Under the pieces are notes generated by a model. The model was not told where the DNA came from and did not search any database. It saw nothing but the letters and a program-made list of their open reading frames with translations. From positions 14,226 through 78,225 of the forward strand of contig CALLRP010000006.1 of assembly GCA_938014335.1 (NCBI GenBank): a stretch of 64,000 bases of DNA, in the 5' to 3' direction. Positions 28,120 through 61,277 of the stretch are shown one piece after another. Position numbers and translations under genes: made by a program. The first letter of the stretch is position 1; every line of letters starts with the position of its first letter. This DNA comes from an uncultured bacterium (GTDB lineage: Bacteria; Hydrogenedentota; Hydrogenedentia; Hydrogenedentales; Hydrogenedentaceae).

Positions 28120-28138
28120 AACATCATTATATTAAATT

Positions 28139-28324
28139 TTAACCTGCCCATGGAGAGGATTTCGTTTGAGAAAGGCCGAAATTGTTTTTGTTTTTTGGCA
28201 ATTTTTTTTTGTGTAATAACGGTATTGCATAAGTCTGCCGAACCAAGGATGGTTTTTTTATGCCATATTTGGCAACTACCACGGCCAGAATAGATGATAA
28301 AAATTTTCTCCGATTTATTGCCAT
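28139..28324 (-). CDS. Possible 61-aa ORF with a textbook twin-arginine (Tat) signal, lying between the AmmeMemoRadiSam rSAM and MEMO-AMMECR1 genes. It is a doubtful gene.
   Basis: The sequence MAINRRKFLSSILAVVVAKYG matches the S/T-RRxFLK consensus followed by a hydrophobic core. It overlaps the rSAM stop by 10 nt. It contains a homopolymer run (A9-10), so a frameshift artefact cannot be excluded. A competing ORF, 28116..28406, overlaps it in another frame. Confidence 0.3.
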   Translation of the reverse strand: MAINRRKFLSSILAVVVAKYGIKKPSLVRQTYAIPLLHKKKLPKNKNNFGLSQTKSSPWAG

Positions 28325-43131: not shown

Positions 43132-43243
43132 AATCTTTTATAAACAATTTTTAATTTTTTTCGTTATATGATATAACGATTGTAAGATATTTAACCTTCA
43201 ATTACATAATTATAAACAATTGTTACTATTTTGGGGTGAATTT

Positions 43244-44260
43244 ATGAAAAGGAAAAAATTGAGTTTTATTGCTATCTGGCTTCTTGTTTTAGTTGCTGGT
43301 TTTTCTTGTAAATCTACAAACAAAGAAGAAAAAAATAATATTCAGACCGAAATCACAAAAGAAGAAAGTATTTTCGACCTTGTCAGAGAGTCAGCTTTAT
43401 TAAATGTGATCGTGAGAAAGTTAGGTCATGAGTTCCCTGTATCTATTTCAGTAGTCAACGGTGCTGAAATACGATGGGTTCAAATTGATAAACCCGAAAA
43501 AGATGTCTCCGATTTAATTCGGCAAATATCTGAAAATACCAATATGGCTTTACAAGAAATAAACGATTATTATTTTTTATATCCGTTAGAACAATCTATA
43601 TATGAAAATCTAACGAAACTTTCACTAACAGAACTACCACAAAAATATTCTAATATAAAAATAACTGCAGGATTTGGTGCAGGGACAAAACTATTTAATG
43701 TCTTTAATAGCCTTAATTTTACTTATGGTTGTAATATTGTTGCAGATAACAGCCTTGCAGAATTACCTATTGGTGAACTGGTAGTTTTTCAAAAGCCTTT
43801 AAGTGTGGCATTAGAAATGATATTAAAAAGTGCCCGTATAGTTCCTCAAAGTATTCGTTGGTGCGCAAAAGATGATTTTATATTTTTTTATACTCCATTA
43901 AATATGAGAGTAGATCAACTTACTGGATGTAAGGTTTTTGATAACGAAGGGAAACAATCTATATTGGACAAAGAAGTAATCATTTCTCTACCAAAATCTG
44001 TTCCATTAAATAAAAAAGGTTCTCTTCCTTTTTATGATGGGGCAATGCCATTATCTAAAATTGCTCCTGTTCTTGCAAATCAAACAGGTCTTACAATAGA
44101 AATGATGGTCGGGACTGAAAACCTACCTATAAATCCATGTTATTTGAATAAAATAAAACTTAAATTAGCCCTTGATTTGTTAACTTTTCAGTGGTTAGAT
44201 ACATCGTATACATATTCTATTGAGAATGAAAAAATCGTTTTTATTAAATTGGGTAACTAA
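43244..44260 (+). CDS. Hypothetical lipoprotein-like protein.
   Basis: The N-terminus is MKRKKLSFIAIWLLVLVAGFSCKST, with a lipobox-like ...GFSC. No catalytic motif was recognised. Confidence 0.5.
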   Translation: MKRKKLSFIAIWLLVLVAGFSCKSTNKEEKNNIQTEITKEESIFDLVRESALLNVIVRKLGHEFPVSISVVNGAEIRWVQIDKPEKDVSDLIRQISENTNMALQEINDYYFLYPLEQSIYENLTKLSLTELPQKYSNIKITAGFGAGTKLFNVFNSLNFTYGCNIVADNSLAELPIGELVVFQKPLSVALEMILKSARIVPQSIRWCAKDDFIFFYTPLNMRVDQLTGCKVFDNEGKQSILDKEVIISLPKSVPLNKKGSLPFYDGAMPLSKIAPVLANQTGLTIEMMVGTENLPINPCYLNKIKLKLALDLLTFQWLDTSYTYSIENEKIVFIKLGN

Positions 44261-45254
44261 CTGGCAAAACAAATCATTGATGAATCTACACTATTTTATA
44301 ACTCAAAATAAAAGACAGATGTCCTATACTCAAAAAATATCTTTTTTTATATGGGTATCATTTATTGCTCATTTATGTGTATTGAGTATTTTTACAAAAA
44401 TCCCAACTTATAAAGGAATAATCTCCTCCATTCCGAAAGCAAAAACGATAAATATAGAATTTGTAAAACAAGAACCACAAAAATCTACAAAAAAGTTAGT
44501 AGAGGTAGTGGAACCTACAGATGAAATCCCTTCAAAAACAGAAAATATTGGAGAATTTAATTCTATATCTTCTGGTCCTATTAAAAAAGATGGAGATACT
44601 CACGGACCTCCTTTGATAGAAAATGAAAAAATTGAGACATTAGGTTCAGAGCATCAAAAAATACAGATTGCTAATGTTATACCGACTCCTGAAAAACAAT
44701 CGAAAACAAAATCTGTAGATTCTATTAGGAAGAGGAAAGAATCCTCCCATATAGATGTAATCCAAAAAGGACAGTTAAAAACAACACCCCCAAAACAAGA
44801 AGAGCCTCCAAAAGAGAGAGATACACTTATAAATAAAGAAAGCCCAGAAAAAATTGTAGCGCCCGAATATTTACCAAATACATTTACTAAACCGCAGGGG
44901 AAAATATATAATCAGGTTAAAAAGGAAGGAATACTTGGATTTGAGGCACTTCAAGACCAGTTAGCACCTTATTTGAAAGAAATCCAACGAAAAGTAGAAA
45001 AATACTGGATACATTATTTGTTAACACGATATTCTGGGACAAAACCTACAGAGGTTCTCATTGATTGTGAGATAAGTTCTGAAGGTAATATTGTTAAATT
45101 AGATATAATAGGGAACCCTGAAGACCCCCTGTTTGCAGGTATTTGTAAACAAGCCTTACAAAAATCTGCACCTTTTTCACCTTTTCCATTTCAGGTTCCC
45201 GATATATATCAAAATAAAAATCTACAAATACGGTGGACATTTAGTTTCATGTAA
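44220..45254 (+). CDS. TonB-family energy transducer-like protein. The start is uncertain; candidate ATGs lie at 44220, 44280 and 44319.
   Basis: It has a TM helix (ISFFIWVSFIAHLCVLSIFT) and a Lys/Pro/Glu-rich linker (...KTTPPKQEEPPKERD...). The C-terminal domain (...IIGNPEDPLFAGICKQALQKSAPFSPFP) resembles the TonB C-terminal fold. It is followed by exbB. Confidence 0.55.
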   Translation: MRMKKSFLLNWVTNWQNKSLMNLHYFITQNKRQMSYTQKISFFIWVSFIAHLCVLSIFTKIPTYKGIISSIPKAKTINIEFVKQEPQKSTKKLVEVVEPTDEIPSKTENIGEFNSISSGPIKKDGDTHGPPLIENEKIETLGSEHQKIQIANVIPTPEKQSKTKSVDSIRKRKESSHIDVIQKGQLKTTPPKQEEPPKERDTLINKESPEKIVAPEYLPNTFTKPQGKIYNQVKKEGILGFEALQDQLAPYLKEIQRKVEKYWIHYLLTRYSGTKPTEVLIDCEISSEGNIVKLDIIGNPEDPLFAGICKQALQKSAPFSPFPFQVPDIYQNKNLQIRWTFSFM

Positions 45255-45274
45255 AGATAAAAGGAGTTTTTAAT

Positions 45275-45889
45275 ATGAACTGGATAAATATGCTTTATCA
45301 AGGGGGATGGGTTATGTTCCCTTTAGGTATATGTTCTGTGATTGCATTGGCAATTATATTAGAGCGTTTGTTTGCACTGAGGATAACGAGAAATGTTCCA
45401 GAAAATCTTGTTCAATTACTTTCTCATCCTAATATGTTAAAAGAACTGGAAACTATTCGTTCTATCGCACACCGTAATAATTCCCTCCTTGGGACACTTG
45501 TTCTTGAAATTATCAATCTTCGTAATGAACCCAAAGAGGTTTTAGTAGAACATATAAATACATTAGGGAGAACACAGTTATCTTATTTGGAACGAGGACT
45601 CACAGTATTGCAAATTATAGCAGTTATAAGTCCATTATTAGGGTTACTGGGAACTGTTTTAGGAATGGTAGATATATTTAATGTAATTACTATAGGAGGT
45701 ATAGGTAATGCGCAAATGCTGGCACAAGGTATTTCAAAAGCATTAATAACCACAGTAGTCGGCTTAATTGTTGCTATCCCTTCATTAGTCGCTTATCATT
45801 TATATTGGAGAAGAGTGGAAGAAATAGGAATAAAAATTCAAGAACTTATTATGCCCTTTTTAATGAAGGTTAAAAGTATCGAAAAATAA
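45275..45889 (+). CDS. exbB: MotA/TolQ/ExbB proton-channel protein (second copy).
   Basis: The sequence ...GLLGTVLGMVDIFNVI...ALITTVVGLIVAIPSLVAY is paralogous to the 9887 gene. An AAGGAG RBS is present. Confidence 0.85.
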   Translation: MNWINMLYQGGWVMFPLGICSVIALAIILERLFALRITRNVPENLVQLLSHPNMLKELETIRSIAHRNNSLLGTLVLEIINLRNEPKEVLVEHINTLGRTQLSYLERGLTVLQIIAVISPLLGLLGTVLGMVDIFNVITIGGIGNAQMLAQGISKALITTVVGLIVAIPSLVAYHLYWRRVEEIGIKIQELIMPFLMKVKSIEK

Positions 45890-45976: not shown

Positions 45977-46129
45977 ATGAAAGAATTATTAAAGGAGTTT
46001 TGGGATTTCCTGAAAGTGAGAAAAAAGTATTGGCTGGCTCCTATTATTATTACGCTTTTATTATTGGCTGCTTTATTTATCTTTGCAGGAAATGCTGGCG
46101 TAATTTCCCCCTTTATCTATGCTTTATAA
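45977..46129 (+). CDS. 50-aa single-TM peptide resembling the DUF5989 family. I found it in a different frame from the ORF-track call 45949..46185.
   Basis: The translation is MKELLKEFWDFLKVRKKYWLAPIIITLLLLAALFIFAGNAGVISPFIYAL. A GGAGG RBS lies 8 nt upstream. It matches my memory of a conserved small-protein family (MxxLLKEFWxFLxVRKKWWLLPIIxxLLLLGAL...) that is often encoded near carbamoyltransferase / SxtJ-like genes. Confidence 0.6.
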   Translation: MKELLKEFWDFLKVRKKYWLAPIIITLLLLAALFIFAGNAGVISPFIYAL

Positions 46130-46204
46130 GACAACCCTTATGTGGGTTGCGCACTCTTTTTAGATTATTCATCATTTCTCCATAAAATACATAAGGAAAA
46201 ATGT

Positions 46205-49200
46205 GTGAAGGGAAGACAAGTTAGGTGTGCTTTATTCTTTATTCTTCTCATTGCTATTATTTTAAGAGTATGGTATCTTTATGAAGTATATAAATATGCC
46301 CCTGATTATTCAGCACTCCAGCAGGACCCGGAAGTTCAAGATTATTTTGCTCGTGCCATTGTAACAGGTGATTGGAGTGTCCCTGAAGGGGTTACCGACC
46401 CCGAGATGCGAACAACCCCTTTTTTCCGTCCACCAGGGCATGGTTATTTTTTAAGTTTTCTGTATCGATTCATTTCGGACAGTTATCTAACACCACGAAT
46501 TGTTAATTCTATCGCTGGCATTTTAACCGTTCTATTAGCATTTTATCTGGGTCGGGCGATTTTCAATGAATATGTGGGATTAATATTCAGTTTTTTAGTG
46601 GCTACCTACAGTGTATTTATATATTGGGAGGGGGAAGTAAATGATCCATCTCTATTTGTCTTTTTTGTTGTTCTCATGTTTTATATTTTGTATCGTTGGA
46701 GTATATACAAAAAATGGTATGAGTGTATTCTTTTGGGCTTGGTAATAGGTGCTTATGCAACTATGAGACCAAACATACTTTCATTTGGTCCTTTTATAGC
46801 CTTATGGATGGCATGGATTGTATTTAAAGAAAAGAAATATTTTGCGTTTATTCCTTCCTGGATTGTTCTCCTTGTTTTTACCTTTGTTCCCATTATACCA
46901 ATCACAGTGAGAAATTATATTGCTTCAGGGGAATGGGTATTCATCTCGACTTATTTTGGTGAAAATTTATTTATAGGGAACAATCCGGAAGCCGATGGAA
47001 CAACCCCATGGAACCAATACTTACAGAAATTAGAAGGAACAGGCAACTGGACTGCTCGCGATTATGTGAATGTGGTAAAAGGGTTGGGTAAAGAATTAGG
47101 AATAAAAGACCTGAAACATGCAGATGCATCAAAAATATTTGCAGAAAAAGCACTGGAATATATCAAAACACATCCTAAAGAAACACTTATACAAGTTTTG
47201 AAAAAAGCAGTTCTTCTTTGGTGTCCTATTGAAATTACATGCAACAAAGTGGTGTATTATGAATTAAAACATTACTCTCCGTTAAAATATCTTCCTACTT
47301 TTCCATGGGCGGGTGGCCTTTTCATTACAGGGACAATTTTGCTTGTTTCTAATATAAAATCTATCTGGAAAAAGAAAAAAATTGTTCCGTTTCTTTTCTC
47401 CTCAAATGGGACATATTCTACAGAGTTATTATTATTAATATACTTGTTTATTGCTACCTATTTAGGTAGTTTTCTCATTTTCTTTGTGAATGGAAGGGCA
47501 CGAGTCCCTGTTATTCCTTTATTTTTTTTAATAGGAGCCAATTTCCTTTATTTTTTGTGGCTATGTATTAAAAACAAAAATCATGTATCTTTAGTAAACT
47601 GGTTATCAGTTCTTTTTATTAGTTTTATTGTAATATCTGTGAAATGGATTCCTTTTGAGCCTGATTTAGCTCGATGGCATTATCAACGAGCAGATTCTTA
47701 TTTAAGAAGAGGAGAAATCCAAAAGGCATTAGAAGAAGCACAAACATTGGTTTATATGCCACAAAGTTTACCTTATATGCATCATCGTTTGGGAAAAGAC
47801 CTATTTAAAGCAGGTTACTTTGTAGAAGCTAAAGAGCAGTTTGAAAAAGGTATTCGATTAGACCCTACTTATCAAGATATGTTTTATTATCTCGGTAAAA
47901 CCTATCTTGTAATGAAAGATGAGACAAAGGCAGAAGAATATTTTAGAAAAGCACTTGAATTAAATCCAAATGATGCCCGTTCTCACAATGAAATTGGGGA
48001 AATTCTTGAGCATCAGGGAAATTGGAAAGAGGCTCTTACTCATTACGAAAAAGCTTTACAAATAGTCCCAGATTTTACTTATGTTTTAGATAAATACGGT
48101 AGAATATTATCTTCACAAGGACGCTCTGAAGATGCGTTGGCTTTTTATAGAAAGGCTTTAGAGACAGACCCTTCCTATCAGGATGTATATTACCTTATTG
48201 GAAGAGAGTTAAGAAGTTTAGGGCGAATTGAAGAGGCGCAAGATACACTCCAAAAAGCGGTAGAATTAAATCCAAAGGATGCAAGGGCACTGTGTGAATT
48301 AGGAAATATTTGTGCAGATGAGGGGGATTGGGATAGTGCAGAGGCGTATTATCGCAAAGCTGTCTCTGCGGTACCTGATTTTGCTTATGCTTATGAACGA
48401 TTAGGAAGAATCTTATTTGCAAAAGATAATTTGAAAGAATCTGAAAAGAATTTAAAAAAAGCGATTGAGTTGAATCCTGAATATCAGGATGGTATTTATC
48501 TTTTAGGTTGTGTTCTGAAAAAGGAAGGACGATTGGAAGAGGCAGAAACATATTTTCGGAGGGCATTAGAATTAAATGTTCGCGATGCACGAGCTTGGAA
48601 TGAATTAGGCGAGATTATGGAAACGAAAAAAGATTATGAGCAAGCACTTAACTGTTATGAAAAAGCATTGGAGGCATATCCTCAATTTGCTTATGTTATT
48701 GCAAAAATGGGTGCAATTTATGCTAACAGGGGAGAATATGAAAAATCGTTGGAAAAACTCAAATTAGCTTTGAACATTGACCCCAATTTCCAGAATGTCT
48801 GTTATATGACAGGGCAGGTACTATCCCGAATGGGACAAAAAGAGGAAGCGAAAGTATACTTTAATAAAGCCATAGAGATGAACCCCGAAGATGCAAGAGC
48901 TCATAGGGAATTAGCCTTGTTAATACAAGAAGATAATCCTGAAAAGGCAATAGAGCATTTCAAAAAGGCATTGGAAATCGTGCCCGATTTCACATTGATA
49001 TTGAATAATTGGGGTAGTCTTCTGGTTAAACAAAATCGTTGGGATGAAGCAGAAAATAAATTTTATGAGGCGTTGAAAATAAGACCCCATGATGAATTAG
49101 CGTACTACAATCTGGCACAGTTAGCAGAGAAAAAAGGGAATACAGAACAGGCGATTGAACTGTATAAAAAGGCAATGGTGAACAGTCCTGATAATTCGTA

Positions 49201-49975
49201 TATTCCGTATGATTTAGGTGTTTTATACGACCGTATGGGTAAAACACAAGAAGCAGAAGCAATGTATTACAAAGCACTAGAAGTAGATGATAAAAATCCA
49301 TTGGCATATAACAATTTAGGTTATCATGCCTTTCTATCAGGAGAAATAGATAAAGCGATAGAACTCTACCAAAAATCCTTATCTATCAAACCTGATTTAA
49401 TAAATGCTCTTTACAATCTTGCAGATGCATTTTTTTCAAAAGAGGAGTTAGAAAAAGTTATTCCTTATTTTGAGAAAGCATTAGAGATTCAACCTAAAGA
49501 CCATAATCTCCATAACGCCTTAGGTTTTTATGCCCTTCAAGTAGGCAAATTCGATTTAGCAGAGAAACACTTAAAGGAAGCAGTAAATTTACAACATGAA
49601 TTCCCACTTGCATGGAAAAATTTAGGGGATTTATATAAAGTTCAAAAAAGATATAGTGAAGCAGAACAAGCGTACAAAAAGGCAATAGAAATTTATCCCA
49701 GTGACGGAGAAGGTTGGGCAAGATATGCTATATTAAAGAAGGAAAAGGGTGATTATCAGGAATCTTTAGAATTATTTCAAGAAGCTTTAAAAAGATTGAA
49801 AGAAAGAGAAAGTCCACCAGAGCTAATTACAGAAGTTTTATTTGAAATAGGAGAAATATACCTTAAATGGGGTGATCAGGAAAATGTGAAGAAAATAATT
49901 ACAGAAATTACAAGATTGAACCCTGAAAATGATGAGATAAAACAAAGAATGAAACAAAAGGGATTCCCTGAATAA
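46205..49975 (+). CDS. Giant membrane protein: an N-terminal GT-C glycosyltransferase (PMT/ArnT/GT39-83-like, TMTC-like architecture) fused to about 25 TPR repeats. The start is reassigned to the GTG at 46205 (AAGGAA RBS).
   Basis: The first 480 residues are polytopic TM with an early extracytoplasmic acidic loop (...VPEGVTDPEMRTTPFFRPPGHGY...). The remaining ~790 residues are tandem 34-aa TPRs (e.g. AKEQFEKGIRLDPTYQDMFYYLGKTYLVMKDETKAEEYFRKALELNPNDARSH...). Confidence 0.8.
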   Translation: MKGRQVRCALFFILLIAIILRVWYLYEVYKYAPDYSALQQDPEVQDYFARAIVTGDWSVPEGVTDPEMRTTPFFRPPGHGYFLSFLYRFISDSYLTPRIVNSIAGILTVLLAFYLGRAIFNEYVGLIFSFLVATYSVFIYWEGEVNDPSLFVFFVVLMFYILYRWSIYKKWYECILLGLVIGAYATMRPNILSFGPFIALWMAWIVFKEKKYFAFIPSWIVLLVFTFVPIIPITVRNYIASGEWVFISTYFGENLFIGNNPEADGTTPWNQYLQKLEGTGNWTARDYVNVVKGLGKELGIKDLKHADASKIFAEKALEYIKTHPKETLIQVLKKAVLLWCPIEITCNKVVYYELKHYSPLKYLPTFPWAGGLFITGTILLVSNIKSIWKKKKIVPFLFSSNGTYSTELLLLIYLFIATYLGSFLIFFVNGRARVPVIPLFFLIGANFLYFLWLCIKNKNHVSLVNWLSVLFISFIVISVKWIPFEPDLARWHYQRADSYLRRGEIQKALEEAQTLVYMPQSLPYMHHRLGKDLFKAGYFVEAKEQFEKGIRLDPTYQDMFYYLGKTYLVMKDETKAEEYFRKALELNPNDARSHNEIGEILEHQGNWKEALTHYEKALQIVPDFTYVLDKYGRILSSQGRSEDALAFYRKALETDPSYQDVYYLIGRELRSLGRIEEAQDTLQKAVELNPKDARALCELGNICADEGDWDSAEAYYRKAVSAVPDFAYAYERLGRILFAKDNLKESEKNLKKAIELNPEYQDGIYLLGCVLKKEGRLEEAETYFRRALELNVRDARAWNELGEIMETKKDYEQALNCYEKALEAYPQFAYVIAKMGAIYANRGEYEKSLEKLKLALNIDPNFQNVCYMTGQVLSRMGQKEEAKVYFNKAIEMNPEDARAHRELALLIQEDNPEKAIEHFKKALEIVPDFTLILNNWGSLLVKQNRWDEAENKFYEALKIRPHDELAYYNLAQLAEKKGNTEQAIELYKKAMVNSPDNSYIPYDLGVLYDRMGKTQEAEAMYYKALEVDDKNPLAYNNLGYHAFLSGEIDKAIELYQKSLSIKPDLINALYNLADAFFSKEELEKVIPYFEKALEIQPKDHNLHNALGFYALQVGKFDLAEKHLKEAVNLQHEFPLAWKNLGDLYKVQKRYSEAEQAYKKAIEIYPSDGEGWARYAILKKEKGDYQESLELFQEALKRLKERESPPELITEVLFEIGEIYLKWGDQENVKKIITEITRLNPENDEIKQRMKQKGFPE

Positions 49976-49985
49976 CCTAAATTTA

Positions 49986-51182
49986 CTATTCAACGAGCTT
50001 ATTTAGATGATTACATACATATTTAACAGTATCTTCGGAAATTCCATCATAGAAAGGTAGGGCAAGCAATCGTGGATAAACATTATTTGCATTGGGACAG
50101 TTTGAATTTTCTATAAATACGGATACATTATCAATTACTTCTTCCCTCAATGCCGTATCAATTCCTCTAAAAAGAAGAGAACGACACATGTTTCGAGAAT
50201 CCATAGGGAGAATAACTACAAACATGTAATAAGATGGAGTACAATCGGGATGTACATAGGGAATATCAATTCTATCTGATAGAAATTTTCGATATAAACC
50301 GGCTATTTCATTCCGGTGCTCTACTCGTGAAGTAAGAAAGGGTAACTTTTCGATACCAATACTTGCTTGAAGAGGAGTAAACCGAATATTTTCAGGTGGA
50401 ACACTCTGAATCTTACGATATATAAACTCAAGTGATTTAAAAAAGAAAGGGAACAATCTAAAGAAAAGTATAGGATACATTAATCGTGAATTATAAAGAG
50501 TTTGTTCTAATTTTATCGATTTCGCTTTTTTAGTTATCTCCTTTGTGGTTAAAATTAATTTTTGGTTGTATTCCCCTACAAAATCAATAAGGGATGAATC
50601 CTTACTTACCAACATCCCCCCGCCATAAGTATTAATGGGTTTGGATATATCAAAACTAAAGAACCCCGCATATCCGAATGTCCCAGCATGCTGATTATTA
50701 ATTTTAGCCCCACATGCATGAGCGGTGTCTTCTATTACGGGAATATTATGTTCTTGTCCTATTTTACATAATTCTTCGATGTAGCAAGGATTTCCAAAAG
50801 TATGTAACGCGATAATGGCTTTGGTCTTTGAAGTTATAGAGTCTTGAACCAATTCAGGGTCAATATTTAATGTTTTGGGATTTATATCCACACAGATAGG
50901 TTTTAATCCCAATGACTGGATGATATTTACAAGTGCCTTTAATGTGAACGAAGGAATGATTACCTCATCATTCTTATGAAGCTTTAAATGTTGCAAAATG
51001 AGTTTGAGAGCCATCCGCCCCGATGGGAGAGCCACTGTGTATGGAGAGCCCAAAAAATCGCCAAACTCCCTTTCCCATCGAGAAACAATCCTATCATTGG
51101 ATAGTAAATCCAGAGAGGGATTTAGAACTTCTTTATATTCAGCAGGTAAAATATGTATCCATCTTCGTGGTATCATATACAC
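49986..51182 (-). CDS. DegT/DnrJ/EryC1/StrS-family PLP-dependent sugar aminotransferase.
   Basis: The conserved core is ...AIIALHTFGNPCYIEELCKIGQEHNIPVIEDTAHACGAKINNQHAGTFGYAGFFSFDISKPINTYGGGMLV (with the PLP-lysine region). It is 398 aa. Confidence 0.88.
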   Translation of the reverse strand: MYMIPRRWIHILPAEYKEVLNPSLDLLSNDRIVSRWEREFGDFLGSPYTVALPSGRMALKLILQHLKLHKNDEVIIPSFTLKALVNIIQSLGLKPICVDINPKTLNIDPELVQDSITSKTKAIIALHTFGNPCYIEELCKIGQEHNIPVIEDTAHACGAKINNQHAGTFGYAGFFSFDISKPINTYGGGMLVSKDSSLIDFVGEYNQKLILTTKEITKKAKSIKLEQTLYNSRLMYPILFFRLFPFFFKSLEFIYRKIQSVPPENIRFTPLQASIGIEKLPFLTSRVEHRNEIAGLYRKFLSDRIDIPYVHPDCTPSYYMFVVILPMDSRNMCRSLLFRGIDTALREEVIDNVSVFIENSNCPNANNVYPRLLALPFYDGISEDTVKYVCNHLNKLVE

Positions 51183-51205
51183 TCCAACTCTTAAAAGATA
51201 TAGTA

Positions 51206-52138
51206 ATGATTAATTTTATAAAAAGCAAAGACAAAATATTAAATGTTCTTCATATATCTGGTTTTGTCATTTTGATATTATTAACCTGTTTTGGAGTATA
51301 TCAGATACGAGAAGAAAATTTTGAAAATATAAAACATGTAATTGTAAATAGATGGGAACTATTCTTTTTAGCGTGTGTATTACGATTATTTGACTGGATT
51401 TTAGACTACTATTTGTGGCGATGTATGTTTAAAAATTTTTCTATCTCTTTCCCTTTTATAAAATCTATTTGGGTCTATCTCACTCAGGGTGCTGGAATTG
51501 TATTGCCGGCACAATTAGGCAGAGCATTAAGAGGATATATAATCACAAAAACAGTGAGCACACCCATCTCAAAAGCCATGACTGCGGAATTTTTGTTTTT
51601 ATTATGTGTTTTGGAAGGAGCATTTTTAGTTTTAATACTCTCATTAGCTATTTATACCAACACATTTGTATTGCCAATAATCCTTTCATTACTTTCATTA
51701 TTACTCTTCCCCTTTTTATTAAAATTCTTTAAACCTTTTCTGGCAAAGTTAAAAATAGGATTAACGGACAATGTAATTCGTCCTCCTTTTTTGATTTTAT
51801 TCTGCATAGGCTGTTCTATTGGGTGGGCAGTTAATGGCTTAATATTTTATCTTTTATTGGGAGGGAAAGAATCGGGACTATATTTAAGTCAAGTTGAAAT
51901 GATTGTTTTAGGAAACTTATTTTTAGCAATATGTAGTGGGATTCCTGGCGGAGTGGGAATTGTAGAAGCAACTATGAGTGTTTCATTACATTGGCTTCAG
52001 GTTCAATTACCCGAAATAATCCTTGTTATAGGGTTGTTCCGTATAATAACATTCTGGATTTGGATACCTTTAGGTTGGCTGGGTTTATTCCGTTTAAAAT
52101 TATATAAAAGTGTGGATTTAAAAGTAGATGTAGAATGA
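51206..52138 (+). CDS. Polytopic membrane protein of the flippase-like / lysylphosphatidylglycerol-synthase-TM (UPF0104-like) type. The start is reassigned to the ATG at 51206.
   Basis: It has about 8 TM helices and no soluble domain. It is first in the operon and is coupled to the next gene by an ATGA overlap. Confidence 0.55.
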   Translation: MINFIKSKDKILNVLHISGFVILILLTCFGVYQIREENFENIKHVIVNRWELFFLACVLRLFDWILDYYLWRCMFKNFSISFPFIKSIWVYLTQGAGIVLPAQLGRALRGYIITKTVSTPISKAMTAEFLFLLCVLEGAFLVLILSLAIYTNTFVLPIILSLLSLLLFPFLLKFFKPFLAKLKIGLTDNVIRPPFLILFCIGCSIGWAVNGLIFYLLLGGKESGLYLSQVEMIVLGNLFLAICSGIPGGVGIVEATMSVSLHWLQVQLPEIILVIGLFRIITFWIWIPLGWLGLFRLKLYKSVDLKVDVE

Positions 52139-53130
52139 AACAGAAAATAAAAAGTATTCCAATACTGTTGAAATCATGGGTAAAAACAAAAATTTTAGGA
52201 ATAAATGCGCCTTTATTTGTTGAGTGGAACCTAACTTTCCGATGCCCATATCAGTGCCTTTATTGTGGCTCTCGGGAAGTGACTGTTAATGAGTTAGATA
52301 CAAATGAAATATTGGAGCGGTTGAATATTTTACAAAAAATAGGTGTTAGATGGATTACCTTTGGTGGGGGAGAACCTTTAATTAAAAAAGACATAATAAA
52401 AATTCTTGAACATGCGAAATCGTTAGGGCTGAATGTTTTTTTAAGTTCCACAGGTGTCAATATAGAAAAGTACAATGGAATTGAAAAGTATGTTGACCAT
52501 ATAAATCTGAGTTTTGATGGGCCACAAGAAATACATGATAAAATTAGGGGTGAGAGGACTTATAATCGGTTATTTCAAGTAGTTGATTTTTGCAAGTCGA
52601 AGAATATTTCGGTGTCCTTTTTATGTGTTATATCCAAGTTAAATATTAATAAATTAGACTATGTTTTAGATAAGGCTAAAGAAGAAAATATAAAGGTAAT
52701 GTTTCAGCCAGCAACTTTACATTTAGATTCCTCTTTAACTCCAAATCCAATTGCTCCTGATAAAGACACATATGATAATGCGCTACAATATATTATGAAC
52801 AAGAAAAAACAAGGCTACCCTGTTCGTAATTCATTTGCAGGGTTAGAATATCTTAGGAACTGGCCGAACCCGTCAAGAATATGGTGTTCTGCTGGAAGAT
52901 TAACATGTACTATTGAACCGGATGGTACAATACTTTCCTGTCATTTATTTGAAACTCGTGAACTATATAAAAAGAAAGAAAACAAAGGAGATAATGAAGA
53001 ATTTGAAAAGATAATAAATCAGTTAAAAGTACCAAAAGGTTGCTCTACTTGCTGGTGTGCCCCTGTTGTTGAACTTGCTTTAATATGGAATTTAAATCCT
53101 TCTGCTATATGGAATGCACTCGGGATATAA
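52135..53130 (+). CDS. Radical SAM / SPASM-domain protein.
   Basis: The cluster motif is CPYQCLYC, with GGGEPLI after it. C-terminal auxiliary-cluster cysteines are present: CSAGRLTCTIEPDGTILSCH...GCSTCWCAP. Confidence 0.8.
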   Translation: MKQKIKSIPILLKSWVKTKILGINAPLFVEWNLTFRCPYQCLYCGSREVTVNELDTNEILERLNILQKIGVRWITFGGGEPLIKKDIIKILEHAKSLGLNVFLSSTGVNIEKYNGIEKYVDHINLSFDGPQEIHDKIRGERTYNRLFQVVDFCKSKNISVSFLCVISKLNINKLDYVLDKAKEENIKVMFQPATLHLDSSLTPNPIAPDKDTYDNALQYIMNKKKQGYPVRNSFAGLEYLRNWPNPSRIWCSAGRLTCTIEPDGTILSCHLFETRELYKKKENKGDNEEFEKIINQLKVPKGCSTCWCAPVVELALIWNLNPSAIWNALGI

Positions 53131-53158
53131 AATGGTTTCTTTTTAGGATTAATTATTA

Positions 53159-54910
53159 ATGATAATATTAGGAATTAGTGAAGACTTTTTTGATGCAGGG
53201 GTTACCCTTTGTGATGATGAGTGGATATTATTCATGTCGAACGAGGAGCGATATACCCGCCAAAAAAATGAAGGTGGATTTCCACATTTATCATTAGAAA
53301 ATGCATTAAAACAAACAGGAATAACATGGAAAGATATACAGGCAGTATGTGTTTCTGGTTTTGTAACACCCTTCCCTTTTTTCCGATTATTTCCTAATTT
53401 ACAGAAAAAAGCATTTTGTTCAAAGAGAAAGAAAAATCAGAGTGACAAAAAATCGAACTACTGGGATAACATTACAGAATGGGCAGTCTCATATAATCCC
53501 ATAAGTTATATGAATCCTTCAGAGACGATGAAAAAAAGTTTATCTGTTATTTTAAGAAAAATAATACGAAAAAGATTACCCTTTCTTAATTCTGATGTTC
53601 CTATTCATTTCATCGAACACCATGAAGCCCATGCATGGGGAAGTTATTTCTGTTCTGGTTTTGATGAGGCACTTATTGTTACTGCAGATGGAATGGGGGA
53701 TGGCTTATCGTTGACTATTTCGAAAGGAGAAGGGAACTCGATAACCCGATTATGGAAATCCTCTGCTAAGAGTTCTTTTGGATTATTTTTTGAGAATCTG
53801 GCGGAAGTGTTAGGATTTGTCCCTTGTAGAGATGAAGGGAAACTTACAGGTTTATCAGCTCATGGAGATGCAAATAGAATTCAGTATGAAAATCCATTTT
53901 CATGGAATAATGATGTCCTCTTATACAAAGGACCCTACGGCAAAAAATTAAGAGAATGGCTTCTACAGTTATTACATGAATATTCGCGAGAAGACCTTTG
54001 TGCCTGGTCACAAAATATTTTAGAACAAATGCTATGTTCTTTAATTGAATATTGGTTAGATAGAACAGGGCTTAAAAAAATTGCTGTGGCTGGGGGAGTT
54101 TTTGCGAATGTGCTGTTAAACCAGAAAATACACGAATTGGAAAAGGTCGAAGAACTCTTTGTGTATCCGAATATGGGTGATGGAGGGTTGAGTTTAGGGG
54201 CTATCAGTGCACAACTCCGTTTTTATCCAAAACCTCTTCCGCATGCTTTCTGGGGGGATGGTTTTAGTAAAAAAGAAATAACGGGTGCAATTTCTAAATA
54301 TAAACTTCCATTTAAAGAATTCGATGAACAGGAAATACCCCAACTTGTTGCAAAGTGTTTGTATAACAAGAGAATTATTGCAAGATTTCATGGTAAAATG
54401 GAATGGGGACCTCGTGCTTTGGGAAATCGTTCTATTTTGTGTGATTCTACCATGAAAGATGTAACAGAAAAATTGAATAATATGTTAAAACGAAGTGATT
54501 TCATGCCGTTTGCACCTGCTTTATTAGATGAGGATGCAGGGCAATTTTTGATAGGATATGAAAAGGCAAGGCATGCAGGTGAATTTATGACATGCTGTTT
54601 TCAGAGTACTCCTAAAATGAAAGACCAACACGGTGCAGTTGTTCATATTGATGGAACAACACGAGCCCAACTTGTAAAAAAAGAGAATAACCCAACCTTT
54701 TATGAAATTTTAAAGGAATATAAAAAACTTTCAGGAACAAGTGTGGTTTTAAATACAAGTTTTAATATGCATGAATCGCCAATAATACGAACTCCTGAAG
54801 AAGCCTTACAAACATTTAAAGAGACTGATGTAGATTTTCTATTTTTAGAAAACTTTGTTATAGCAAAAACTCCGGATTTATGGAATGACTTTAGACAAAA
54901 TAGCAAATAA
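53159..54910 (+). CDS. NodU/CmcH-family carbamoyltransferase.
   Basis: The N-terminus, MIILGISEDFFDAGVTLCDD, is a Kae1/HypF-like ASKHA fold. A middle ...HHEAHAWGSYF... His motif and a C-terminal carbamoyl-phosphate-binding domain are present. It is 583 aa. Confidence 0.88.
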   Translation: MIILGISEDFFDAGVTLCDDEWILFMSNEERYTRQKNEGGFPHLSLENALKQTGITWKDIQAVCVSGFVTPFPFFRLFPNLQKKAFCSKRKKNQSDKKSNYWDNITEWAVSYNPISYMNPSETMKKSLSVILRKIIRKRLPFLNSDVPIHFIEHHEAHAWGSYFCSGFDEALIVTADGMGDGLSLTISKGEGNSITRLWKSSAKSSFGLFFENLAEVLGFVPCRDEGKLTGLSAHGDANRIQYENPFSWNNDVLLYKGPYGKKLREWLLQLLHEYSREDLCAWSQNILEQMLCSLIEYWLDRTGLKKIAVAGGVFANVLLNQKIHELEKVEELFVYPNMGDGGLSLGAISAQLRFYPKPLPHAFWGDGFSKKEITGAISKYKLPFKEFDEQEIPQLVAKCLYNKRIIARFHGKMEWGPRALGNRSILCDSTMKDVTEKLNNMLKRSDFMPFAPALLDEDAGQFLIGYEKARHAGEFMTCCFQSTPKMKDQHGAVVHIDGTTRAQLVKKENNPTFYEILKEYKKLSGTSVVLNTSFNMHESPIIRTPEEALQTFKETDVDFLFLENFVIAKTPDLWNDFRQNSK

Positions 54911-55559
54911 TAAAAATGAAAGATTAAAAATTGCCATTATTGATTATTCCGCAGGGAATATCCATTCTGTATATCGTGCTTTTTCGAAGACAGGTGTCAT
55001 GATTGAGGTTATAAATAAGGAAACGGAGTTAGACCTATTTGATGCGGTTGTTTTGCCAGGGGTAGGTGCCTGTGCCAGTGCTATGGACTTTTTATCAAAG
55101 GTAGGACTTATAAAGAGATTAAACCACTATGTTTTAGAATTGAAAAAGCCTATTTTAGGGATTTGTTTAGGTTTTCAAATAATGGCAGAATTTAGTGAGG
55201 AAGGCGAAGCAAAAGGATTAGGTTGGATACCGGGACATGTCCGTTATATACGGAATGTTGTTCAAAATTTCATTCGCGTTCCACATATTGGCTGGAATGA
55301 TGTGAAAACTTACAAAGGAAGTTTATCTCTTCTGTCAGGGATGATAGATAATCCTAATTTTTATTTTGCTCATTCATACTTTATCCCAGCCAATAAAATC
55401 GAAGGAAACATTGGAATAACCGAATATGGAACGCCCTTTATTTCTTTATATCAAAATAAAAATATTTACGGCACTCAATTTCATCCCGAAAAAAGTTATA
55501 TTGGTGGTGCTATCTTAATCCAAAATTTTTTAAATGAGGTATGTAATGCTAAAAGTTAG
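54885..55559 (+). CDS. HisH-like glutamine amidotransferase subunit. In this context it is a WbuY-type partner of the sugar amidotransferase, not a histidine-biosynthesis gene.
   Basis: The triad signature is GICLGFQIM...HSYF..FHPEKS. It lies between the carbamoyltransferase and the HisF-like/WbuX genes. No other his genes are present in the window. Confidence 0.8.
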   Translation: MTLDKIANNKNERLKIAIIDYSAGNIHSVYRAFSKTGVMIEVINKETELDLFDAVVLPGVGACASAMDFLSKVGLIKRLNHYVLELKKPILGICLGFQIMAEFSEEGEAKGLGWIPGHVRYIRNVVQNFIRVPHIGWNDVKTYKGSLSLLSGMIDNPNFYFAHSYFIPANKIEGNIGITEYGTPFISLYQNKNIYGTQFHPEKSYIGGAILIQNFLNEVCNAKS

Positions 55560-56364
55560 AGTAATACCGGTATTATTACTAAGACATTGGGGTCTGGAGA
55601 AGACCATCCAATTTACAAATCCTAAATATGTGGGGTGTCCAATTAATGCGGCTCGAGTTTTTAACCAGCATAATGTGGATGAACTTATATTGCTTGACAT
55701 AGTCGCGACACTTGAAAATCGTCCTCCGGAAATTGATGTTGTGAGGCAAATATCCGCAGAGACTTCAATGCCCTTCACAGTAGGAGGAGGAATTCGGGAT
55801 GTAGGCATTATACGAGAGTTATTAAAAGCGGGGGCAGATAAAGTAGTTTTAAATACCTCCGTTGTTGAAGTCCCCGGTTTGTTGGAAAAATCCGCAGAAC
55901 AATTTGGGCGACAATGTATTGTAGTATCCATAGATGTGAAAAAAGTTAATGGGACTTATGAGGTATTTACGCATGGAGGGAGGAAACCCGCAGGATTAAA
56001 CCCTGTAGAGTTGGCAATGAAGGCAGAGAAAGAAGGAGCCGGGGAAATATTAATTACAAGTATAGATAGAGATGGAACGCTCGAAGGTTATGACTTAGAT
56101 TTAATAAAAATGATTACAGAATCAGTTCAGATTCCTGTTATTGCTTGTGGTGGGGCTGGTTCTGTAAAAAATTTAGCAGATGCATACTATAAATCAGGGG
56201 CTTCTGCTGTAGCGTGTGGTGCATTTTTTCTCTTTTATGGTACTCGAAGGACAGTACTAATAACTTACCCATCCGAAGAACAATTGTTAGAGTATTTTGA
56301 GCCTCAACATGTTCGAAAAAGAGATCCCAAGAAACCTATTGATTTAGAATTAGCACGGTTATAA
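55546..56364 (+). CDS. HisF-like cyclase/ammonia-channel subunit (WbuZ-type). The start is moved to the ATG at 55546 (GAGG RBS).
   Basis: TIM-barrel HisF motifs are present: ...RVIPVLLL..., DELILLDI, GGGIRD and ITSIDRDGTLEGYDL. Confidence 0.8.
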   Translation: MLKVRVIPVLLLRHWGLEKTIQFTNPKYVGCPINAARVFNQHNVDELILLDIVATLENRPPEIDVVRQISAETSMPFTVGGGIRDVGIIRELLKAGADKVVLNTSVVEVPGLLEKSAEQFGRQCIVVSIDVKKVNGTYEVFTHGGRKPAGLNPVELAMKAEKEGAGEILITSIDRDGTLEGYDLDLIKMITESVQIPVIACGGAGSVKNLADAYYKSGASAVACGAFFLFYGTRRTVLITYPSEEQLLEYFEPQHVRKRDPKKPIDLELARL

Positions 56365-56381
56365 CGGATATAGGTGGTGTT

Positions 56382-57533
56382 ATGATTCAGCAAAATGAAG
56401 AAAAAGTTTTATGTAAACGGTGTGTGATGGATACTTCTATTCCAGGCGTTCGTTTAGACAAACAGGGAATATGTAACTTTTGCCACATGCATAATAATTT
56501 AGATAAACGATTCCCTGTGGGAGAAGAAGGAGCAAAAATATTACAAAAGATTGCTAATAAAATAAGAAAAGATGGCAAAGGGAAAAGATACGATTGTGTC
56601 GTTGGAGTAAGTGGGGGAAGAGATACATCTTATTGTTTATATTATGTGAAAGAAGTTATGAATCTACGTCCTCTGGCTGTTCATTTTGACAACGGTTGGG
56701 ATTCCGAAATTGCAAAGAGTAATCTTGCTAAATTATGTGATAAATTAGATGTAGAATTGCACACGATAATTATGGACTGGCCTGAATCCCGCGAACTAAC
56801 AAATGCAACTATTAGAGCATGTGTACCTTATATAGACTTAACGGACGATATCGGAATTGCGAGTAGTTTATACCGAACCGCTGTCGAAGAAAATGTCCGC
56901 TATATCATTCTAAGTCATTCTTTTCGTGAAGAAGGGATAACCCCACTGAAATGGAATTACATAGATGGAAAATATACCCGTGCTATTGTAGACCAGTTTT
57001 GTACAATTCCATTAATACATTTTGAGAATGTAGAACTCTGGGATATGATTTACTGGATATTGTGGAGGGGAATTCGTGTAATTAATATAACAAATTATTA
57101 TGACGATACAGGGGAAAAAATAGAGACATTTCTTAAAGAAAAGTTTGATTGGCAGGATACAGGACAACACCATTTGGATAATGAATTATTTACATTAGTT
57201 TATTATTATGCAAGAAGAAAATTTGGTTTCGATTGGCGCGTAGTTGAATTATCCGCAAAAGTTAGAACCGGTGTAATTTCTCGAGAGTCTGCTTTGAAAG
57301 CGTTACAAGAAATTCCTTTTTTTGAGGATGAAGAAAGGATAGAACATTGTTTAAGAAAACAAGGTATAAGTCGAGAAGAATTTGAGATGATAGTTAAATC
57401 ACCCAATAAATATTTTACAGATTATCCGTCTTACTATCCCTTGCTACGAAAGTTTAAATGGTTTATATGGATTTTATGTAAACTTCATGCTATACCAGCA
57501 CATACTTATGAAAAATATTTTCATGCTATCTGA
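56382..57533 (+). CDS. PP-loop N-acetyl-sugar amidotransferase (WbuX/WbpG/PseA-like) that forms an acetamidino group.
   Basis: N-terminal Cys pairs form a zinc ribbon (CKRCVMD...CNFCHMH). The PP-loop is VVGVSGGRDTSY. It is 383 aa. Confidence 0.82.
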   Translation: MIQQNEEKVLCKRCVMDTSIPGVRLDKQGICNFCHMHNNLDKRFPVGEEGAKILQKIANKIRKDGKGKRYDCVVGVSGGRDTSYCLYYVKEVMNLRPLAVHFDNGWDSEIAKSNLAKLCDKLDVELHTIIMDWPESRELTNATIRACVPYIDLTDDIGIASSLYRTAVEENVRYIILSHSFREEGITPLKWNYIDGKYTRAIVDQFCTIPLIHFENVELWDMIYWILWRGIRVINITNYYDDTGEKIETFLKEKFDWQDTGQHHLDNELFTLVYYYARRKFGFDWRVVELSAKVRTGVISRESALKALQEIPFFEDEERIEHCLRKQGISREEFEMIVKSPNKYFTDYPSYYPLLRKFKWFIWILCKLHAIPAHTYEKYFHAI

Positions 57534-57583
57534 AATTAAACTTAAATCGGTATATAATTTTATTTTAATTAGGTATACGGTAA

Positions 57584-59023
57584 ATGAAGAAAAAAAGATT
57601 ATTTTTAGTTAATCTGGGTTTGAGAAGACCACTATATCCATTAGCCACTCCTCCGATGGGGCTTTTGTATCTTTCGGCGTATCTACGCCGTGAATTGAAA
57701 GACATTGAAATAGGTATAATAAACCAGAGGTTGGAAAATTGTAATATTGAAGAATTATGTGAAAGAATCAAGACTTTTGAACCCGACATTATTGGTATAT
57801 CTACTTTTACCACTTTTGCTTATTTACTTCCTTTGTTAGTCCCAATGCTTCGAAGTGCTTGTCCCAAAGCATGGATTATTGTTGGAGGACCCCATGCTTC
57901 AGCTGTGCGTAAAGGTGTATTTGATGATGTAGATATAGATATTTTAGTGCCAGGTGAGGGCGAAATTGCTTTAAAACAAATAATAGAAAGTTTTCCAGAA
58001 AGGGAATCGTTACAAAATATAAACGGGATTTACTGGAAAGATAAATCAGGAGAGGTAATTCAGAACCCAGGATTATTGCCTATGATTGAGAATTTAGATG
58101 AATTGCCTTTTCCCGCTTATGATTTAATTGATTTGCCCCGTTATTGGAAACATCAGTCTATTGCCCCTATAGTAAGAAGGAAATATGCCTCACTTGTAAG
58201 TAGTCGGGGGTGTCCTTATCAATGTATGTGGTGTCATTCTATTTTTGGAAGACGAATCCGAATGCATTCTGCTGAACGAGTTGTAGATGAAATCGAATAT
58301 TTGGGAAAAGAATACAATATCACCGATTTTGAGTTTTTAGATGATAACTTTAATTTTAACTCGAAGCGAGTAATAGAGATTGCAGAACTTATTCATAAAC
58401 GAGGCTTAAAAACAGAAATTGCTTTTCCCACCGCAATTCGAGGAGATTTAGCAACTCAGGAAGTTATAGATGCGATGCATTCTATAGGTACATATCTTTG
58501 TGGCTACTCATTAGAGACAGGGTCTCCTCGGCTACAAAAATTTACCTGTAAAAGACTGGATATTCCCAAATTTTTAAATGCGGTAGAAATGACAGCCAAA
58601 AAGAACATCTACATTACAGGTTTCTGTATGATGGGATTTCCTACTGAGACCGAAGAAGAACTACAACAAACTATAGATGTAGCATGTAAATCTCGTTTTC
58701 ATACCGCTAGTTTCTTTACAGTAACCCCATTCCCCGGAACCCCTCTCTTTGAATGGGTAAAAGAAAATCGTCCTGAAAAATTATCACAATTGAATTATAA
58801 CAACATGGATTTCTCAGCAATGAATGTAAATTTAACAGACTTGCCTGACGAAGTCCTTTTTGCCTATCAGCGTAAAGCTATGAAAAAGTTTTATACCGAC
58901 CCCATTCGTATTTATCGACTATTGAGAAGTTATCCCAAACCCCTGCTATTGCCCTATTATCTCCCCATCTTTATCCATCGAGCCACCAAAGGACTATGGA
59001 AATCTCAAACAATTAATTGTTAA
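57584..59023 (+). CDS. B12-binding-domain radical SAM protein (class-B-like).
   Basis: The N-terminal B12-binding fold is ...DIIGISTF...AWIIVGGPHAS. The radical-SAM motif is SSRGCPYQCMWC. It is 479 aa, and its stop overlaps the start of the downstream GT-C gene. Confidence 0.85.
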   Translation: MKKKRLFLVNLGLRRPLYPLATPPMGLLYLSAYLRRELKDIEIGIINQRLENCNIEELCERIKTFEPDIIGISTFTTFAYLLPLLVPMLRSACPKAWIIVGGPHASAVRKGVFDDVDIDILVPGEGEIALKQIIESFPERESLQNINGIYWKDKSGEVIQNPGLLPMIENLDELPFPAYDLIDLPRYWKHQSIAPIVRRKYASLVSSRGCPYQCMWCHSIFGRRIRMHSAERVVDEIEYLGKEYNITDFEFLDDNFNFNSKRVIEIAELIHKRGLKTEIAFPTAIRGDLATQEVIDAMHSIGTYLCGYSLETGSPRLQKFTCKRLDIPKFLNAVEMTAKKNIYITGFCMMGFPTETEEELQQTIDVACKSRFHTASFFTVTPFPGTPLFEWVKENRPEKLSQLNYNNMDFSAMNVNLTDLPDEVLFAYQRKAMKKFYTDPIRIYRLLRSYPKPLLLPYYLPIFIHRATKGLWKSQTINC

Positions 59024-61272: not shown

Positions 61273-61277
61273 TTCAA

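Follow-up and report, generated by a model that had tools for sequence, protein, structure and literature searches.

The window analyzed here is a 64,000-nucleotide stretch of contig CALLRP010000006.1 (assembly GCA_938014335.1), which comes from an uncultured bacterium of the family Hydrogenedentaceae. Positions 46205..49975 on its forward strand hold a lone intact gene (hereafter the target gene), located correctly in the original prediction, which had been made from the DNA letters alone. Also borne out was the predicted fusion, within this one gene, of a GT-C-type glycosyltransferase domain with a long C-terminal array of tetratricopeptide repeats (TPRs). The gene and its parts are listed below, with lengths in amino acids (aa) and transmembrane helices abbreviated as TM. 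Residue numbers here and throughout follow a 1277-aa long form of the protein unless stated otherwise, and subtraction of 21 converts them to the numbering of the favored 1256-aa form.

46205..49975, forward strand: target gene, complete; 1256 aa plus stop codon; GT-C glycosyltransferase domain at the N-terminus, joined to 22 TPRs
46205..47665, forward strand: GT-C membrane domain, aa 1–487 in the 1256-aa numbering; 11 predicted TM, N-terminus cytoplasmic and C-terminus periplasmic (Pfam PMT_2, AlphaFold, Foldseek)
46292..46486, forward strand: first periplasmic loop (EL1), 65 residues with two short helices; codon of an invariant Asp at 46325..46327; near-invariant R-P-P-G motif
46928..47299, forward strand: large periplasmic loop EL4 between TM7 and TM8, 124 aa; follows the invariant R-N that closes TM7 and contains invariant G, G-N, and K
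47495..47497, forward strand: invariant Arg R452 (R431 in the 1256-aa numbering) in a short loop before TM10; candidate donor-phosphate ligand
47669..49909, forward strand: array of 22 TPRs in a 34-residue register, with one 33-residue unit (Pfam and NCBIfam TPR matches, tiling, AlphaFold hairpins, structural match to OGT)
47873..49093, forward strand: four tandem copies of a 3-TPR (102-aa) super-repeat, units 3–14, with the junction signatures Y-Q-D, D-A-R, and F-A/T-Y at every third unit

A single, unbroken open reading frame (ORF) spans 46142..49975 on the forward strand and has 1277 codons when counted from the GTG at 46142. The length of 1277 aa originally assigned to the protein holds for this longest ORF only; the in-frame GTG at 46205 gives 1256 aa, 21 fewer. 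The GTG at 46205 is favored as the start because it has an AAGGA ribosome-binding site 8 nt upstream, because residues 1–22 of the long form are the sole disordered N-terminal stretch in the AlphaFold model, and because the lengths of related proteins agree with it. An equivalent start gives 1256–1257 aa in the orthologs of three of the five related genomes (for the remaining two, the lengths are those of the open frames, 1266 and 1245 aa), and four public ortholog copies have 1256 aa each. The two halves were also checked as possible separate genes, and they form one gene in every genome in which an ortholog was found. A scan for promoters and terminators gave sites no more numerous than in shuffled sequence.

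The membrane domain and its candidate active site

When the whole protein with its TPRs is compared with Pfam, 57 families match, and the top 25 are all TPR or related helical-repeat families. Residues 1–520 alone match PMT_2 (PF13231) with 38.0 bits against a gathering cutoff of 26.1. This is the sole significant Pfam match of the N-terminal half, and PMT_2 was found in all 15 aligned homologs. Because TPR matches outscore PMT_2, the glycosyltransferase domain is invisible in the NCBI annotation; the public ortholog MGC8737941.1 (P0255; 1256 aa) is named merely “tetratricopeptide repeat protein.”

Searches of the N-terminal half against NCBIfam gave nothing at E ≤ 10, and sequence-only searches against Protein Data Bank (PDB) chains, with either the single sequence or a 15-sequence profile, found no GT-C protein. 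The profile gave only short, non-significant matches of terminal TPR positions to designed TPR proteins. Since sequence methods alone gave no tie to a solved structure, the membrane domain was modeled. A 900-residue AlphaFold model has a mean predicted local distance difference test (pLDDT) score of 91.9 and retrieved TPR proteins only in Foldseek, as the repeats dominate its score; for this reason, the membrane domain (aa 1–524) was modeled separately (pLDDT 90.1; predicted TM-score, pTM, 0.91). The top 42 Foldseek matches of this second model in the PDB are all GT-C-fold membrane proteins, nearly all of them glycosyltransferases, and the first 34 have a probability of 0.96–1.0. Among them are AglB from archaea (E 2e-5), STT3 from human and yeast, PglB, Pmt4, and Pmt1/Pmt2, as well as ALG9, ALG3, ALG12, EmbA, EmbB, EmbC, AftB, PimE, and ArnT (E 8.6e-3). 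Identity in the alignments is 9–16%. Most of them span about 500–600 columns; those to Pmt1/2, one Pmt4 entry, ALG12, and PimE span about 260–350. The TM-score to the query is mostly 0.41–0.48 among the top 21 matches and 0.24–0.36 for many of the lower ones, including Pmt1/2, EmbA, and ArnT. Structure comparison thus made the GT-C fold visible where sequence search alone had failed. On the strength of the profile score and the structural model, the N-terminal half is a GT-C glycosyltransferase domain, and its placement in the sequence neighborhood of PMT_2, ArnT, and PMT agrees with what had been predicted.

A check for the fold and for an acidic residue in the outer loops found both, the acidic residue being invariant and located in the first outer loop. 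Conservation was assessed in an alignment of 33 homologs and in a more divergent set of 15 sequences that reaches down to 21% identity. Invariant in both sets are D62, P98, G126, N211, W222, R257-N258, V266, G273, G279-N280, K355, and R452. At least 90% of the sequences in the 33-sequence alignment also keep R96, P97, E163-G164-E165, and R209-P210; in the 15-sequence set, only E163 and R209 among these stay at or above 90%. The invariant D62 (D41 in the 1256-aa numbering) lies 10 residues after TM1. Eisenhaber et al. (PMC7801869) described catalytic and ligand-binding positions that are common to ArnT, PglB, STT3, PMT, and TMTC, and the target has a conserved candidate for each of the following, matched by loop position rather than by superposition:

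Asp shortly behind TM1, in EL1: D62
Basic residue opening the second EL1 helix (TMTC “SHKSYRP,” ArnT K85): R96 in “F-F-R-P-P-G”
Acidic residue in the second periplasmic loop (EL2) before TM4 (ArnT D158): E163/E165
Basic residue in the third periplasmic loop (EL3; ArnT K203): R209 in “R-P-N”
Arg in the fifth periplasmic loop (EL5) before TM10 (TMTC “AERV,” PglB R375): R452 in “G-R-A-R-V-P”

By this loop correspondence, the near-invariant R96 and the invariant R452 stand in the loops expected for donor-phosphate binding.

In the AlphaFold model, TM1 is followed by EL1, six more TM that end at R257-N258, EL4, and four further TM, which makes 11. The short N-terminus is basic, and the short loops on the proposed cytoplasmic side of this 11-TM model carry nine Lys and Arg residues, versus four on the other side. 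EL1, EL4, and the TPRs all fall on one side. The window also encodes an RND pump, a TolC-type outer-membrane factor (OEP), a TonB-like protein, and ExbB, which imply an outer membrane and thus a diderm organism. The predicted topology is therefore N-terminus in and C-terminus out, with periplasmic TPRs. The layout of 11 TM with the N-terminus inside and the TPRs outside the cytoplasm, for which a topology prediction had been proposed as a check, is that described for TMTC1–4 (PMC7801869).

The TPR array and its relatives

An uninterrupted run of about 25 TPRs over about 790 residues had been predicted. The array is indeed uninterrupted, but tiling gives 22 units over about 750 residues. Our tiling of aa 510–1256 places these 22 units in a strict 34-residue register, with a single one-residue deletion in the unit starting at 918. 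Pfam recognizes 16 TPR_1 stretches in the target, and a hidden Markov model built from the target's own units retrieves 20. The AlphaFold model has helical hairpins through residue 900, and the first unit is a clear hairpin; the last unit, which lies outside the modeled part, is a divergent cap.

The four copies of the 3-TPR super-repeat are 32–45% identical in protein and about 52% identical in DNA. Tandem Repeats Finder detected no DNA tandem repeat in the TPR region, so the duplication of the super-repeat is ancient and a recent repeat expansion is ruled out. Among solved structures, the modeled TPRs are most like the substrate-binding TPR superhelix of human OGT (1w3b), with E 3.3e-18, 27% identity, and a TM-score to the target of 0.80. 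Canonical position 6, which faces the concave side, is hydrophobic, Glu, or Lys/Arg by turns in the first twelve units, whereas units 14–20 have mostly Asn or Asp there, as in OGT and consensus TPRs. The cyclic position-6 pattern is retained in all orthologs. Mean conservation among orthologs is 0.88 for concave helix-A positions, 0.72 for helix-B and outer positions, and 0.92 for the structural core. The helix-A value fits a groove under selection, as judged from the alignment, and packing may contribute to it. Scaled from consensus TPR crystals, which have approximately 8 repeats and 72 Å per turn, the array should wind into a right-handed superhelix estimated at about 200 Å in length.

The nearest proteins belong to metagenome-assembled genomes (MAGs) of Candidatus Hydrogenedentes and are named “glycosyltransferase family 39,” “ArnT family,” or “tetratricopeptide repeat protein.” A scan of one genome per GTDB species identified five true one-to-one orthologs, with amino acid identities of 87% in Ca. 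Hydrogenedens terephthalaticus, 84% in isolate KM4344-31, and 66–86% in three further MAGs. All five are about as long as the target, and their 22 TPR units correspond one to one, with none gained or lost. Identity is 64–83% in the TPR region versus 66–87% in the catalytic domain. In four of the ortholog loci (the flanks of the fifth, L008, were left out), the gene order as far as the end of the locus or contig is cyclase, lipoprotein, TonB-like, ExbB, DUF5989, and target, followed by a convergent DegT aminotransferase gene and then a sugar-tailoring operon. Two of the ortholog genomes (L007, 78% identity; L008, 66%) are labeled “uncultured Nitrospirales bacterium,” and the gene order is conserved in L007. 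These genomes may be mislabeled bins, as their closest relatives are all Hydrogenedens.

Proteins of 881 aa from Hydrogenedentes, which make up most of the initial homolog matches, were considered as orthologs and rejected, since KM4344-31 has both types on one contig; they are paralogs. In GCA_036769585.1 (L001 7790..13791), the gene for such an 881-aa paralog lies between another PMT_2-TPR gene and a gene for a family 2 glycosyltransferase (GT2) with a GT2_TM_C tail. Next to this cluster come B12-radical-SAM, unknown, and hydrolase genes, which mirror positions 56382..63840 at the right end of the window, so that a further paralog may lie just past that end. Another Hydrogenedentes contig (L004 7662..20986) carries five PMT_2 genes in a row, four of them with TPRs. 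The target is one of several paralogous GT-C-TPR proteins in these genomes, each probably with its own client or sugar.

From 1.84 billion cluster representatives, a membrane-domain profile retrieved 58,803 at E ≤ 1e-3 and 7,679 at E ≤ 1e-30. GT-C-TPR fusions are thus very abundant in environmental bacteria, with tens of thousands of cluster representatives by this profile, and public annotation often hides the enzyme half. Recognizable TPRs follow the GT-C domain in 140 of the best 149 representatives, which have a median length of 748 aa and a median of 4 detected TPR units. Only three of these 149 reach at least 1000 aa, namely the target's own cluster (1256 aa) and proteins of 1396 aa and 1111 aa. 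The fusion is ordinary, and the length of the target is at the extreme of the range. The target is a gene of an expected type: it belongs to a known kind that is very common yet mostly unstudied, and it stands out by its unusual length. For the study of this kind, it offers a high-confidence model, invariant residues, orthologs for comparison, and an extreme TPR length.

Characterized counterparts and the nature of the acceptor

By architecture, the closest characterized bacterial enzyme is TfpW of Pseudomonas aeruginosa, and it is the only characterized bacterial GT-C-TPR enzyme found in the literature searched. TfpW has 11 TM, its periplasmic loop 1 carries an acidic motif that is essential, and its TPR domain, also periplasmic, was modeled on OGT; genetics and reconstitution demonstrated that it is necessary and sufficient to polymerize D-arabinofuranose and attach it to pilin (bioRxiv 10.1101/2020.04.19.049825). 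The suggestion that bacterial TMTC-like enzymes are functionally uncharacterized consequently did not hold. The likeness, drawn from architecture and published description, comprises the first-loop acidic residue, the C-terminal periplasmic TPRs, and OGT as the best template. The differences are that TfpW has 646 aa, a short TPR domain, a D-arabinofuranose donor, and a gene directly downstream of pilA, whereas the target has 22 TPRs and no pilin gene next to it: lipoprotein, TonB-like, ExbB, and DUF5989 genes precede it, and a DegT aminotransferase gene follows.

The original prediction had likened the protein to the eukaryotic TMTC1–4, which are protein O-mannosyltransferases of cadherins (CAZy family GT105). 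As predicted for the target, their GT-C domain has 11 TM, their N-terminus is cytoplasmic, and their TPRs are non-cytoplasmic, and both share the EL1 Asp, a basic “YRP”-type EL1 motif, an acidic EL2 residue, a basic EL3 residue, and the EL5 Arg. TMTCs act in the endoplasmic reticulum, whereas the target would act in a bacterial periplasm, and its 22 TPRs are about double the 8–12 or so of TMTCs. Membership in the family was rejected. The TMTC hallmark DUF1736 (PF08409) in EL4 gave no Pfam match at E ≤ 10 in the target and none at E ≤ 0.1 in the 15 homologs, and the domain scores as PMT_2. Moreover, of the two Asp residues in the TMTC DD motif (PMC7801869), the first alone is kept, the next residue being Pro, Leu, Ala, or Met across the homologs. 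The resemblance is architectural; the view that the protein works like a TMTC or TfpW survives, but not the view that it is a TMTC.

TMEM260, a protein O-mannosyltransferase of plexin and MET IPT domains with reported distant bacterial homologs, resembles the target in its 11-TM GT-C domain, its lumenal and partly TPR C-terminus, and its catalytic Asp in the first lumenal loop (PMC10214176). It belongs to a different sequence family with a much shorter TPR-like region, and no Pfam family of the TMEM260 type turned up in scans of the target or its homologs. ArnT (GT83) and the PMTs (GT39), which use polyprenyl-phosphate monosaccharide donors, share with the target a Pfam clan, similarity at the level of PMT_2, and structural matches. 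ArnT, however, has 13 TM and a small alpha/beta periplasmic domain and acts on lipid A, and one of the lumenal loops of the PMTs holds a MIR domain. Membership in these families was likewise rejected, given the 11 predicted TM and the TPRs, the lack of an NCBIfam match of the N-terminal half at E ≤ 10, and the lack of a Pfam match to PF02366 or MIR in the target. As for OGT, its TPR domain is the best structural match and its position-6 Asn recurs in units 14–20 of the target; its catalytic domain is a soluble GT-B, unlike the target, and the first twelve target units are without the position-6 Asn pattern.

We consider it very probable that the protein is a GT-C transferase with its active site toward the periplasm, that it draws on a polyprenyl-phosphate sugar, and that it selects its acceptor through a long, conserved TPR superhelix. 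For the acceptor itself, analogy tips a nearly even balance slightly toward protein, since each of the three characterized GT-C families with TPRs (TfpW, TMTC1–4, and TMEM260) acts on protein. Taken as a whole, an inner-membrane GT-C enzyme of the diderm Candidatus Hydrogenedens with a protein acceptor captured by the TPRs is the reading that we favor, with modest confidence.

In this proposed mechanism, the 11-helix membrane domain would set the active site on the periplasmic face, formed by EL1 with the invariant Asp, EL2 with Glu-Gly-Glu, EL3 with Arg-Pro-Asn, the long EL4, and EL5 with the invariant Arg. The last TM is predicted to exit into the periplasm and run directly into the 22 TPRs. 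From what is known of the family, the donor would be a polyprenyl-phosphate-linked sugar that a GtrB/ArnC-type GT2 makes at the cytoplasmic face and that is flipped afterward. Coupling to such a donor within the family is suggested by the 881-aa paralog in GCA_036769585.1, the gene of which overlaps the start of the GT2 gene with the GT2_TM_C tail by 4 nt. By analogy with proposals for TMTC1–4, TMEM260, and TfpW, the TPR superhelix may capture the acceptor in its concave groove and feed it to the active site. The acceptor would most likely be an exported protein or an extended polypeptide segment, and the sugar would probably be O-linked. The array appears to be functional rather than filler, because all 22 units are kept, TPR identity is near that of the catalytic domain, concave positions are conserved, and OGT is the structural match.

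A protein acceptor, if true, would suggest extensive periplasmic protein glycosylation in an uncultured phylum, and the enzyme could serve as a bacterial model for client choice by TPRs in TMTC-type enzymes. A further-reaching proposal, which we regard as improbable, is that the superhelix of about 200 Å crosses the periplasm and makes the protein a “reach” glycosyltransferase, anchored in the inner membrane, that threads or hands over envelope proteins destined for the outer membrane or cell surface and glycosylates them in transit. Together with three to five paralogs per genome, it would then provide Hydrogenedentota with a general system of protein O-glycosylation partitioned by client, comparable in bacteria to the division of labor among TMTC1–4, and the 3-TPR super-repeat would be a periodic binding code for a repetitive client.

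Several points weigh against the favored reading. The function of the subfamily is drawn from prediction and analogy, the topology and loop equivalences are drawn from prediction and motif position, and the helix-A conservation could partly reflect packing instead of ligand binding. No candidate substrate gene, such as one for pilin, adjoins the target, and within the window the nearest GtrB-type GT2 gene lies at a distance of 32 kb. Lipid A, not protein, is the acceptor for PMT_2 relatives such as ArnT, and Emb and Aft enzymes act on glycans. The TPR arrays of BcsC, PgaA, and similar proteins accompany polysaccharide export rather than protein recognition, and the TPR region of the target has weak NCBIfam similarities to BcsC and PgaA.

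Some of these points feed the strongest alternative, which we consider possible yet doubtful: an active enzyme with a glycan or glycolipid acceptor (lipopolysaccharide or lipid A, capsule, exopolysaccharide, or another envelope polymer). Its TPRs would be a periplasm-spanning scaffold that docks partners or guides the polymer toward the outer membrane, like the TPRs of BcsC, PgaA, AlgK, and PelB, with the same doubtful standing. The catalytic domain scores as PMT_2, homologs are named “ArnT family,” ArnT and Emb proteins are among the structural matches, and the BcsC and PgaA model matches, although sub-threshold, fall in the TPR region. Furthermore, the target adjoins an operon for a heavily tailored, acetamidino- and carbamoyl-modified amino sugar that ends in another GT-C gene, and relatives with four or five clustered PMT_2 genes resemble the serial GT-Cs of mycobacterial arabinan and mannan. 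Every characterized GT-C with C-terminal TPRs nevertheless glycosylates protein, and the polysaccharide-export TPRs generally sit on outer-membrane porins or lipoproteins, not on the synthase. The best-ranked structural matches are also protein glycosyltransferases, ahead of ArnT and Emb, which argues weakly in the same direction.

It is very unlikely that the GT-C domain is a dead membrane anchor and the protein a periplasmic TPR scaffold or chaperone, for example for the TonB-like/ExbB system. The target does share its strand with the TonB-like, ExbB, and DUF5989 genes that precede it at gaps of just 75–88 nt, in an order kept in relatives, and the NCBI label of its ortholog mentions TPRs only. 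This synteny is seen among close relatives only and so carries little weight, whereas the hallmark positions of the active site vary little or not at all even at about 20–21% identity, which is unexpected for a pseudo-enzyme, and conservation is slightly higher in the catalytic domain than in the TPRs. Finally, a fusion artifact, with two genes joined through an assembly or frame error, stands practically no chance and is ruled out by the frame that is open from end to end, ORFs of similar length in five independent assemblies, the four public copies of 1256 aa, the continuous AlphaFold model in which the last TM passes with high confidence straight into the first TPR, and the same fusion in 140 of the 149 nearest cluster representatives.

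Neighboring genes

The genes and gene groups discussed in this section are as follows:

45977..46129, forward strand: gene for a DUF5989 protein of 50 aa with a single TM; 71 bits against a cutoff of 27 (Pfam); ends 75 nt before the target gene; has a GGAGG site of its own
49986..61272: sugar-tailoring operon, with a divergent aminotransferase gene at the left and a GT-C gene at the right end (Pfam and NCBIfam)
59074..61272, forward strand: second GT-C protein, 732 aa, closing the tailoring operon; about 180 aa without TPRs after the membrane domain, then 3–4 degenerate TPRs
13318..14307, reverse strand: DxD-containing GT2 with two C-terminal TM, of the polyprenyl-phosphate sugar synthase type

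Upstream of the target, 43220..45889 on the forward strand contains a lipoprotein-like gene, a TonB-like gene, and exbB. The TonB-like protein has a weak TonB_2 match (E 0.0025) and a long linker rich in Pro, Lys, and Glu. An exbD gene was not seen, and the DUF5989 gene occupies the slot after exbB. The DUF5989 gene is possibly co-transcribed with the target, and locus L009 has a small ORF at its position. A literature search on DUF5989 found nothing. DUF5989 genes often accompany carbamoyltransferase and SxtJ genes; a carbamoyltransferase gene lies 7 kb downstream of the one in the window.

The sugar-tailoring operon next to the target had been predicted correctly, as its content attests. HisH, an AglZ/HisF2 acetamidino-modification protein (322 bits, cutoff 310), and a WbuX amidotransferase (225 bits, cutoff 203) make up an acetamidino-forming trio, the last two above their NCBIfam cutoffs. 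The operon also encodes a NodU-like carbamoyltransferase, a SPASM-type radical SAM protein, a B12-radical-SAM methyltransferase-type enzyme, a flippase-like LPG_synthase_TM protein, and the divergent LegC/PseC-like aminotransferase. The longest ORFs of the aminotransferase (49986..51182, reverse strand) and the LPG_synthase_TM protein (51023..52138, forward strand) overlap by 160 nt. Judging from the orthologous loci, in which the latter protein has 310–317 aa, its true start is probably about 60 codons later than listed.

For the second GT-C protein, a start at 59074 is more plausible than one at 59017, and the resulting 732 aa are identical to a public protein (P0043). Its PMT_2 score of 25.0 is just below the cutoff of 26.1, and homologs at about 30% identity are annotated with PMT_2 and TPRs. 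Its own TPRs align weakly with target units (E 1.8e-5). The original prediction had described 59017..61272 as a shorter copy of the target architecture that closes the operon. This description is only loosely true: the protein does close the operon and has a GT-C domain and TPRs, but given its non-TPR region of about 180 aa and its few, degenerate repeats, it is a distant cousin rather than a copy.

The GT2 protein at 13318..14307 aligns over its full length with the PgfS and ArnC models at scores below their cutoffs, and its architecture points to a polyprenyl-phosphate sugar synthase of the GtrB/ArnC type. It had been proposed as the source of the donor for the target. Its gene is 32 kb away, between genes for a PP2C phosphatase and a TauE exporter, and such a link is a possibility that the locus itself does not bear out.

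Elsewhere in the window, a gene for a Memo-AMMECR1 fusion (26554..29292, reverse strand) adjoins a radical-SAM gene, which we take to be the known AmmeMemoRadiSam trio with two of its parts fused. Beside the fusion gene, 22994..26557 on the reverse strand encodes a protein of 1187 aa with FMN_bind and Fer4_5 domains.

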